Virus record (IMG/VR): IMGVR_UViG_3300010409_000003
DNA length: 64,000 nucleotides
Strand: one strand, 5' to 3'
Source of the DNA: a virus
Taxonomy: Duplodnaviria; Heunggongvirae; Uroviricota; Caudoviricetes
Below, piece after piece: positions 6,305 to 6,600 of the stretch. A program made the position numbers and the translations under genes. Each line of letters opens with the position of its first letter. Positions within the stretch are counted from its first letter, which is position 1. The notes beneath the pieces were generated by a model, which was not told the origin of the DNA, made no database searches, and worked only from the letters and a program-made list of their open reading frames with translations.

Positions 6305-6600
6305 ATAGTAGTCACCGTCTTGTTGATAATCGACGAGTCGGTGGAGCTAATATTGTAACGTAAGAATGGGAGTCCTAGAGCATAAATTGGCTACAGCCCT
6401 TTAGAATGTCCGTGTTGTTGATAATCAACATGTAATATATAAAGAAGATACTTTAAAGACACTACTTAGTTGTGTAACTAAGGTAGCTACTATAGTGATC
6501 ACTTAAGTATACTAACTAAGTTAAATACTATAGTTACTAACTAGTTTAAAGAAGATAACGAGCATACAGCGAGAAAAAGAAAATAACTAACTAGTGTGAT
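6305..6600. repeat. left copy of an about 300-bp inverted regulatory module (partner 37150..37440); contains operator-like palindromes TGTTGATAATCGACG (about 6321) and TGTTGATAATCAACA (about 6411) and an AGTGATCACT palindrome
   Basis: Reverse complement of 37150-37440 aligns with 6305-6600. The blocks tcaccgtcttgttgataatcgac, tagccctttagaatgtccgtgttgttgataatc, aagatactttaaagac and gacgagcata(c/t)agcgagaaaaaga are identical, separated by diverged stretches. Confidence 0.8.

Follow-up and report, generated by a model that had tools for sequence, protein, structure and literature searches.

Segments that flip between inverted repeats are known from Anabaena/Nostoc cyanophages (A-1(L), N-1, Elbi, A-Lf14, and others), in which an invertible region of ~30 kb is flanked by inverted repeats of 400–700 bp, lysates contain both isomers, and no dedicated recombinase is known (bioRxiv 10.64898/2026.02.14.705889). 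Here we analyzed a 64,000-nucleotide stretch of a tailed phage genome (IMG/VR virus record IMGVR_UViG_3300010409_000003; hereafter, the window), in which a non-coding module with a shared core of ~290 bp occurs in two inverted copies, copy A at 6309–6586 (+ strand) and copy B at 37150–37424 (− strand), separated by 30.6 kb. The cyanophages and the present phage are alike in being lytic tailed phages (65–90 kb) with non-coding inverted repeats of hundreds of base pairs around ~30 kb of DNA, in having replication and early genes within the segment, and in showing the segment in opposite orientations among close relatives. The present phage is a second, independent case of a flipped, ~30-kb early-gene segment flanked by inverted repeats, a phenomenon already described in the cyanophages.

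The two cases differ in detail. In Nostoc phage A1, a 717-bp inverted repeat at 20503–21219 and 53130–53845 is 98.5% identical between its two arms, 32 kb apart, whereas identity between the window copies is 77% and no exact run exceeds 32 nt. No sequence similarity was found between the modules and Nostoc phage A1, and the phages are unrelated. Furthermore, the description of the cyanophage repeats includes neither a location between divergent promoters nor internal features such as boxes and a repeat array.

Anatomy of the inverted module

The initial annotation, made by reading the sequence alone, had reported a ~300-bp module in inverted copies sharing identical blocks, and a blastn comparison of 6201–6798 with the window bore this out: copy A aligns with the reverse complement of copy B at 77% identity over 287 nt (E = 7.9e-48), with identical runs of 32, 23, 21, 20, and 18 nt. 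The mean column identity in a pairwise MAFFT alignment is 82%, and a repeat finder run on the window recovered the same arms (I1, I4, I5, and I9). Within the 64 kb, the 15-mer TGTTGATAATCRACA, allowing up to two mismatches, is found only at 6321–6335, 6416–6430, 37303–37317, and 37398–37412 (7 strand-hits against 0.34 expected, a number reached in none of 100 shuffles). Likewise, AGTGATCACT occurs in the window only at 6494 and 37233, and the blocks ACGAGCnnnnAGCGAGAAAAAGAA and AGCCCTTTAGAAT are confined to the two modules. The similarity between the copies is not that of generic AT-rich sequence, a possibility that had been raised with the original proposal, because the identical blocks persist in the modules of other phages while the flanks differ.

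Each copy contains two dyad-symmetric sites, as first proposed; all four are TGTTGATAATCRACA dyads of the 7-1-7 type. Box 1 of copy A (6313–6343) is a 31-bp extended dyad, CACCG-TCTTGTTGATAATCGACGAGT-CGGTG, built around the core 15-mer at 6321–6335; the core is invariant in all copies, and the general form of the box is (C)ACCG-N22-CGGT. As single-stranded DNA, this box folds with −7.8 kcal/mol (z, −2.7). Box 2 of copy A (6395–6433, counted with the conserved upstream block AGCCCTTTAGAATGTCCGTG) lies in the 32-nt exact block and holds a perfect dyad, TGTTGATAATCAACA, at 6416–6430, the dyads at the other three window sites being near-perfect. The left arm of box 2 is as in box 1, and the invariant block AGCCCTTTARAA precedes it. 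In copy B, motif search located box 1 at 37391–37420 (core 15-mer, 37398–37412), and motif search and blastn located box 2 with its conserved block AGCCCTTTAGAAT at 37300–37338 (core 15-mer, 37303–37317). Across the seven full module copies that we could assemble from the window and its relatives, 14 of 14 boxes have an identical core, TTGTTGATAATC. The distance from box 1 to box 2 is 95 bp in four copies, 96 bp in a fifth, and 86 bp in both copies of a related phage (phage 2, see below), in which the spacer sequences themselves are just 46% identical. Since the spacing is kept at 86 or 95–96 bp, the two boxes stay on roughly one face of the helix, about eight or nine turns apart.

To the right of box 2 follow 100–153 bp of 75–90% AT, composed of imperfect 12–13-nt repeats of the type TAAGTWnCTAAC. 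The array of copy A spans 6478–6548, with AGTGATCACT at 6494–6503 (Tandem Repeats Finder, TRF: 6504–6543, period 13, 3.2 copies), and that of copy B spans 37190–37262, with AGTGATCACT at 37233–37242 (TRF, ~37201–37227). Arrays of period 12–13 were detected by TRF in six of the seven module copies; the repeat sequences themselves are poorly conserved. A GATC palindrome lies inside the array in most copies. The shared core then ends in a purine-rich block, GACGAGC-N4/5-AGCGAGAAAAAGAA; the conserved block GACGAGCATACAGCGAGAAAAAGAAAATAA at this right edge is located at 6557–6586 (+) in copy A, where it was recognized by blastn, motif search, and alignment, and at 37150–37179 (−) in copy B, by motif search and alignment. 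In the window, copy A alone has an extension (6596–6626, +) seen in sequence and folding, consisting of GTGATCAC and a hairpin or dyad, ACT-GTTAC-TTC-GTAAC-TATAGT. A hairpin-like dyad of the form ACT-GTTnn-TTC-nnAAC-TATAGT follows the core in copy A and in several relatives, and comes in three versions, each fully compensated (GTTAC/GTAAC, GTTCG/CGAAC, and GTTCA/TGAAC). Another copy of this hairpin is found at 18834–18846 (−).

The module is a cis-acting DNA element, neither a gene nor an RNA. No conserved open reading frame (ORF) was found in the modules, which contain just unconserved ORFs of 20–36 codons. A structured non-coding RNA or a long leader would account for conserved blocks that alternate with variable stretches, as in an RNA gene, and weak promoter-like matches point into the modules of the window at 6219–6248 (+) and 37492–37463 (−). 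Nevertheless, such an RNA is hardly to be expected: on the module strand, none of the pairs predicted by RNAalifold showed compensatory change (four copies, 0 of 39; seven copies, 0 of 20), and on the opposite strand just 4 of 45 were weak candidates; Rfam and tRNA searches gave no match within the modules; the inward promoters are not conserved in the relatives L069, L004, and L006; and much of the element is low-complexity AT-rich repeat. The boxes are very probably protein-binding sites. When compared by eye, they fit none of the consensus sequences of Fur, LexA, CRP, FNR, Fis, and IHF. The half-box TTATCAACA is one mismatch away from the DnaA consensus, which is a resemblance and no more.

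Conservation in related phages and inversion of the 31-kb segment

The window belongs to a tailed, myovirus-like phage of 34% GC and represents a novel, uncultured, marine-type myovirus lineage. The window has no nucleotide match among GenBank phages, and blastn of both intergenic regions against 50,697 GenBank phages returned none; the capsid protein is at most 28.5% and the primase-helicase at most 56% identical to proteins of Alteromonas, Pseudomonas, Vibrio, and Pseudoalteromonas myoviruses. The modules of relatives were recovered by pattern scans and protein-anchored look-ups in metagenomic collections. Homologous modules were obtained from a 70.9-kb IMG/VR contig (L004/L067) and a 19.5-kb contig (L071), both from sample 3300038701, from two ENA assemblies (L069 and L070), from IMG/VR sample 3300036764 (L006), and from ENA ERZ888641 (L079), along with partial copies from L068 (Logan SRR5035895), L073/L074, L076, and L078. 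In L004/L067, L071, L069/L070, L006, and L079, the module is conserved block by block with type-specific flanks; in the seven full copies, the shared core reaches from box 1 to GAGAAAAAGAARATAA, and the sequence beyond is specific to the neighboring operon. L067 is collinear with 26.2–51.2 kb of the window and carries a B-type copy, and in L071 an A-type copy separates the replication genes from those found to the right of copy A. Phage 2 thus appears to have two module copies, if these contigs of one sample represent one phage. Altogether, these alignments show the module to be conserved in no fewer than four related phages from metagenomes, and in at least one of them it appears to be double.

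A scan of viral, metagenome, and genome collections with a box 20-mer gave 53 loci, 51 of which are coincidences in coding sequence, leaving L004 and L006 as homologous; scans with two other conserved blocks returned the same two loci. Pseudoalteromonas phage J2-1 was considered as a cultured comparison (helicase identity, 54%) and set aside, because its genome layout differs. Contigs found with anchor proteins from either side of copy B were short or broken at the repeat and uninformative on linkage. Several short-read and Logan contigs (L068, L073/L074, and L078) end inside the module, for example at box 2 or just past AAAGAAGATACTT, which is what a repeat would be expected to cause. The repeat thus breaks, and can mis-join, short-read assemblies of these phages, and gene order near it in metagenomic contigs needs care.

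The modules mark both points at which the gene map diverges. Copy A separates a leftward block of replication genes (A-left, 1–6200, −), including a T7-gp4-like primase-helicase at 1106–3034, from a rightward block of small early-type genes (A-right, 6799–17371, +). Copy B separates a leftward block encoding an RNA ligase, a PIF1 helicase, a Dam-type methyltransferase, an SPFH protein, and an endolysin (B-right, 19044–36866, −) from a rightward block (B-left, 37547 onward, +) that leads into the terminase, portal, capsid, and tail genes. The A-left/A-right and B-left/B-right linkages are found in the window and in phage 2 (L071 and L004/L067), and the A junction alone was seen in phage 3 (L069/L070). 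The closest lineage (phage 4, L006/L079), with a helicase 85% and a winged-helix protein 79% identical to those of the window, shows the other linkage. In L006, the junction is A-left/B-right: homologues of 5316–5549, 5567–5734, and 4740–5123 through to 1106–3034 lie on one side of the module, and homologues of 35677–35841, 34159–34314, and 32825–33325 on the other. In L079, the junction is B-left/A-right: a homologue of the 66-aa gene 37547–37747 (76% identity, E = 1e-37) is followed by the module and then by homologues of 7370–7585 and of the winged-helix gene.

Because L006 and L079 show both reciprocal junctions, the 31-kb segment was inverted during evolution, so that the earlier suggestion of the inverted copies as a substrate for inversion holds on the evolutionary scale. 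L006 and L079 stem from different samples and assemblers, and no single genome shows both junctions. In the interval between box 1 and box 2, a comparison of the window with phage 4 gave 10 sites linked to the right flank and 2 linked to the left, placing the crossover at or near box 1. The same 10:2 linkage, together with the fact that the copies share just ~23 nt to the left of the variable inter-box spacer, makes chimeric assembly unlikely. As each operon keeps its own promoter, the inversion breaks no transcription unit and should be nearly neutral. Frequent flipping in the window phage is unexpected, since its copies are 77% identical, with no exact run above 32 nt.

We also considered a programmed switch, in which the palindromic boxes would be crossover sites at which a dedicated recombinase flips the 31-kb segment. 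The mapping of the crossover in the sister lineage to the vicinity of box 1 and the inverted, palindromic nature of the sites would suit such a system, which is nonetheless very improbable. No recombinase domain was detected with Pfam and PHROGs among the ~75 window ORFs scanned, a scan that left aside some small ORFs and ~27 kb of the source contig. The sites recognized by serine and tyrosine recombinases have a crossover core of 2 bp or 6–8 bp, whereas the center of the dyad here is 1 bp. Inversion would switch nothing, since the linkage of promoters to genes stays the same, and the segment is 31 kb of early genes rather than a small tail-fiber cassette. The Gin/Hin/Cin invertase systems are excluded as a parallel on three of these grounds, which concern the recombinase search, the site core, and the absent expression switch.

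The two copies within a genome have also exchanged sequence. In quartet site counts for the window and phage 2, sites grouping by genome, by type, and crosswise number 26:6:4 overall and 23:1:1 to the right of box 2, and in the latter region the phage 2 copies are 86% identical to each other, compared with 47–61% for orthologous pairs. Gene conversion between the copies is evident from these alignments as the process that would keep them alike. In the sample of L006/L078, the repeat extends further right, with 98.4% identity over 124 comparable nt. It could be argued from the strong homogenization to the right of box 2 that the module is an intergenic duplication relic, kept alike mainly by conversion and serving solely as a recombination substrate. 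We regard this as improbable: the blocks are invariant between phages whose proteins are 45–85% identical and whose neighboring non-coding sequence is beyond alignment, which points to purifying selection, as conversion within a genome cannot yield invariance across lineages. Also, the box spacing is kept even where the spacer sequence differs.

Origin-like layout and possible transcriptional control

Four divergent sigma70-like promoters had been proposed around the two copies, and each copy is indeed located between divergent promoters. Three are strong consensus matches detected by promoter scanning. The A-left promoter (6233–6261, −; TTGACA-17-TACAAT; 11/12) reads outward into the replication genes and is kept in L069, L071, and L006; the A-right promoter (6738–6767, +; TTGACA-18-TG-TAATAT; 10/12 with TG) drives the genes from 6799 onward and is kept in L069 and L078/L079; and the B-left promoter (37479–37507, +; TTGACA-17-TATACT; 11/12) drives the genes from 37547 onward and is kept in L004. 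The fourth, the B-right promoter (36900–36928, −; TTGCAT-17-TATACT with an upstream TGTG; driving 36866 downward), was read by eye and not listed by the scanner; it is kept in L006, L073, and L076. In both modules, box 1 adjoins the ‘left’ promoter, which fires outward.

From this arrangement, we tentatively prefer, among the functions considered, an origin-type function for the module, with the boxes as initiator-binding sites and the array as an unwinding element, a reading that we hold at rather less than even confidence. The layout is origin-like in its in-phase sites, adjacent AT-rich tandem repeats, GATC, and a promoter-free gap between strong divergent promoters. The GATC palindrome is present in the module although this tetramer is scarce in the window, and the phage encodes a Dam-type methyltransferase. 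Briefly, a phage-encoded dimeric protein would bind both boxes, and the bound proteins would interact across the spacer of ~9 turns. The module sits in an apparently untranscribed gap between back-to-back sigma70-type promoters, and the negative supercoiling that these produce would aid the opening of the adjacent AT-rich repeats. With the origin present twice, forks would leave each divergence point co-directionally with transcription. The module may also act as an early control region.

A precedent for two origins in one phage is the Bacillus phage SPP1, which has two similar origins, oriL and oriR, bound by gp38 (PMC6316719). SPP1 and the present phage share two homologous sequences per genome with repeated boxes beside an AT-rich element, and one of the SPP1 origins lies in a long intergenic region (PMC6316719). 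They differ in that the SPP1 boxes are direct repeats, with oriL inside gene 38, whereas the boxes here are dyads, and in that gp38 is a full-length initiator working with the loader gp39 and a DnaB-type helicase, whereas the present phage has a candidate consisting of a winged-helix domain only and a T7-gp4-like helicase. Homology between the sequences of the two is not expected.

This candidate, a 114-aa protein of the replication-initiator/DnaD-N type encoded at 7582–7926 (+), is the best candidate binder of the boxes, on the basis of profile matches and gene adjacency. It matches the N-terminal domains of the PHROG families ‘replication initiation protein’ and ‘DnaD-like helicase loader’ (E = 2.6e-9 to 4e-7) and, weakly, replication-initiation proteins from Helicobacter phages. 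Of its distant homologues, most are 200–330 aa long and match at their N-terminus, and some hit Pfam HTH_36 and DnaD_N. The gene neighbors copy A in every relative: it directly follows the module on the right in L069, L070, and L071, and is at most two or three genes away from it in the window, L078, L079, and L081. An IMG/VR search with the winged-helix alignment gave no match. Among the binders suggested in the initial annotation, only the product of this gene (given there as 7570–7926) survives, owing to its PHROG replication-initiator N-domain; those of 8888–9118, 9531–9722, and 37547–37747 yielded no DNA-binding signature.

Several observations weigh against an origin. The phage has a T7-gp4-like primase-helicase, and phages of the T7 type can begin replication from promoters, free of an initiator. 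A 1.8-kb, ORF-free repeat region at 17.4–19.2 kb is a competing origin candidate. The AT-richness of the array is not distinctive, as the whole genome is 66% AT and the sequence flanking box 1 on the left is equally AT-rich; the phage 2 modules are without GATC, and the B copy of L073 is without the purine-rich block. Canonical DnaA boxes are absent from the modules, and the host DnaA box TTATNCACA occurs at 6 sites in the window, which is at chance level. The protein encoded at 7582–7926 is a winged-helix domain alone, with no C-terminal domain. Its Pfam HTH_36 match has an E-value of just 0.02, and a Foldseek search of the PDB with its AlphaFold model (pLDDT 72) gave generic winged-helix matches (best E, 0.01), in which DnaD-N and Rep scored no better than MarR-type regulators; the protein might just as well be a transcription factor, its adjacency being the sole tie to the boxes. 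At each module, the GC skew switches together with the gene orientation, and yet the skew is unable to separate replication from transcription, because it tracks the gene strand everywhere.

Several of the same features may instead be explained by a transcriptional control region, in which the dyads would serve as operators or upstream sites for an early repressor or activator of the phage, the winged-helix protein perhaps autoregulating its own operon, the duplication co-regulating four transcription units, and looping possibly occurring between boxes or between the two modules, as between OL and OR of lambda. The perfectly conserved dyadic 15-mers fit a dimeric regulator; both module copies lie between promoters; and the box spacing of 86 or 95–96 bp is compatible with small repression loops. 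Moreover, the small winged-helix protein has a predicted fold that matches the MarR type, one of its homologues is called a DeoR-family regulator by JGI, and its gene heads the A-right operon in L069–L071, an arrangement typical of autoregulation. The module likewise resembles OL/OR of lambda as a pair of homologous, inverted groups of dyads that head divergent early operons, those of lambda cooperating by looping. The lambda operators, however, come 2.4 kb apart as sets of three adjacent 17-mers placed over the −35 and −10 sequences of PL, PR, and PRM, whereas the present boxes stand 46–75 bp from the left promoter and more than 300 bp from the right one, in modules 31 kb apart.

The promoter geometry speaks against this account. 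All −35 and −10 elements lie outside the boxes; box 1 is separated from the left −35 hexamer by 46, 47, 47, 64, 70, 71, and 75 bp in the seven copies, with no helical phasing; and the boxes are located >300 bp upstream of the right promoters. No activator should be needed by the left promoters, which are near-consensus (11/12). The 12–13-mer array, the purine block, and the GATC palindrome are also left unexplained. Thus, in the view of the boxes as repressor or activator operators, with which the study began, the dyads very probably do bind a protein, while their lack of promoter overlap and their variable, unphased distance tell against the regulatory assignment. We judge operators to be less likely than an origin, and rather unlikely in absolute terms; the origin and transcriptional roles are not mutually exclusive.

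Neighboring features and wider meaning

Other features of the window are recorded here in their own right. The A-right and B-right operons converge on the ORF-free 1.8-kb region (17372–19278), in which 1 kb holds 23 copies of TATAAG, GCTACTGTTGTATA-like motifs face inward from both sides (+ strand, 17505, 17637, and 17891; − strand, 18551 and 18681), and CTACCTAATTAGT is found at 18812; another GCTACTGTTGTATA-like motif is located upstream of the B-right promoter, at 36970 (−). The 70.9-kb contig of the relative ends, by our estimate, near the equivalent of this region, which may mark one end of the genome, serve as a further origin, or hold clustered phage-specific promoters. A family of intergenic hairpins around cTTAGAATGgct...CTGAGAGG(T/C)TT is found at 5816, 8154, 11827 (−), 18146, and 18365, with related repeats at 11795–11841, 19114–19143, and 35571–35651. 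TTAGAATG occurs 11 times in the window against ~5 expected. The AGCCCTTTAGAATG of the module shares the octamer, which may be a coincidence.

Within the A-right block, a 76-nt direct repeat (87% identity; 16287–16362 and 17002–17077, and also 15275–15303) holds a promoter-like GTTGACT sequence and a leader ahead of consecutive small genes, and the ORF at 16389–17000 (+) contains ~12 tandem 15-nt units of a pentapeptide-repeat-like type. GATC is found 33 times in the window where 152 are expected, a 4.6-fold depletion, with 3 of the 33 sites in the modules; CCGG (4 against 20 expected) and CGCG (2 against 8) are also strongly avoided, and a D12-class (Dam-type) adenine methyltransferase is encoded at 27607–28443 (−).

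Inserted elements were also seen. The tail tape-measure gene is interrupted by a group I intron (55942–56231, +; Rfam RF00028, 77.7 bits), and the ORFs on either side, 54844–55953 and 56284–57177, match consecutive positions of phrog_5255 (268–431 and 432–560). The large terminase (42692–45088, +; 798 aa) has a LAGLIDADG insertion, intein-like or an inserted endonuclease, and its homologue in L067 consists of two ORFs of ~390 aa (12193–13374 and 13611–14801), each 88–90% identical to the window protein. An HNH endonuclease gene (556–1332, −) lies just downstream of the primase-helicase gene, and the primase-helicase of L069 (5119–7491) carries a Hint (intein) domain; thus, mobile elements cluster near the replication genes of this lineage.

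Returning to the module and its preferred, origin-type function, a further analogy is offered by herpes simplex virus, in which oriS is doubled by way of the inverted c repeats, lies between divergent immediate-early genes, and has dyad sites around an AT-rich core, and in which recombination between the repeats yields genome isomers. This is an analogy only, as herpes simplex virus is a eukaryotic virus with identical repeats of kilobase length and unrelated proteins. By extension, the module would be a true origin in two inverted copies, with inversion and gene conversion as by-products of initiation or fork events, a proposal that we consider doubtful and well below the origin-type function itself in likelihood. 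If true, the inverted repeats around ~30-kb early-gene segments in unrelated lytic myoviruses, including those of A-1(L), N-1, and Elbi, could be duplicated origins, and the present phage would provide a phage counterpart of the genome isomerization of herpesviruses with oriS in inverted repeats. A compact, strongly conserved cis-element with a candidate binder gives a handle on the start of replication or on early gene control in this lineage, and the readable internal anatomy of the repeat offers a testable idea of what such inverted repeats are for.

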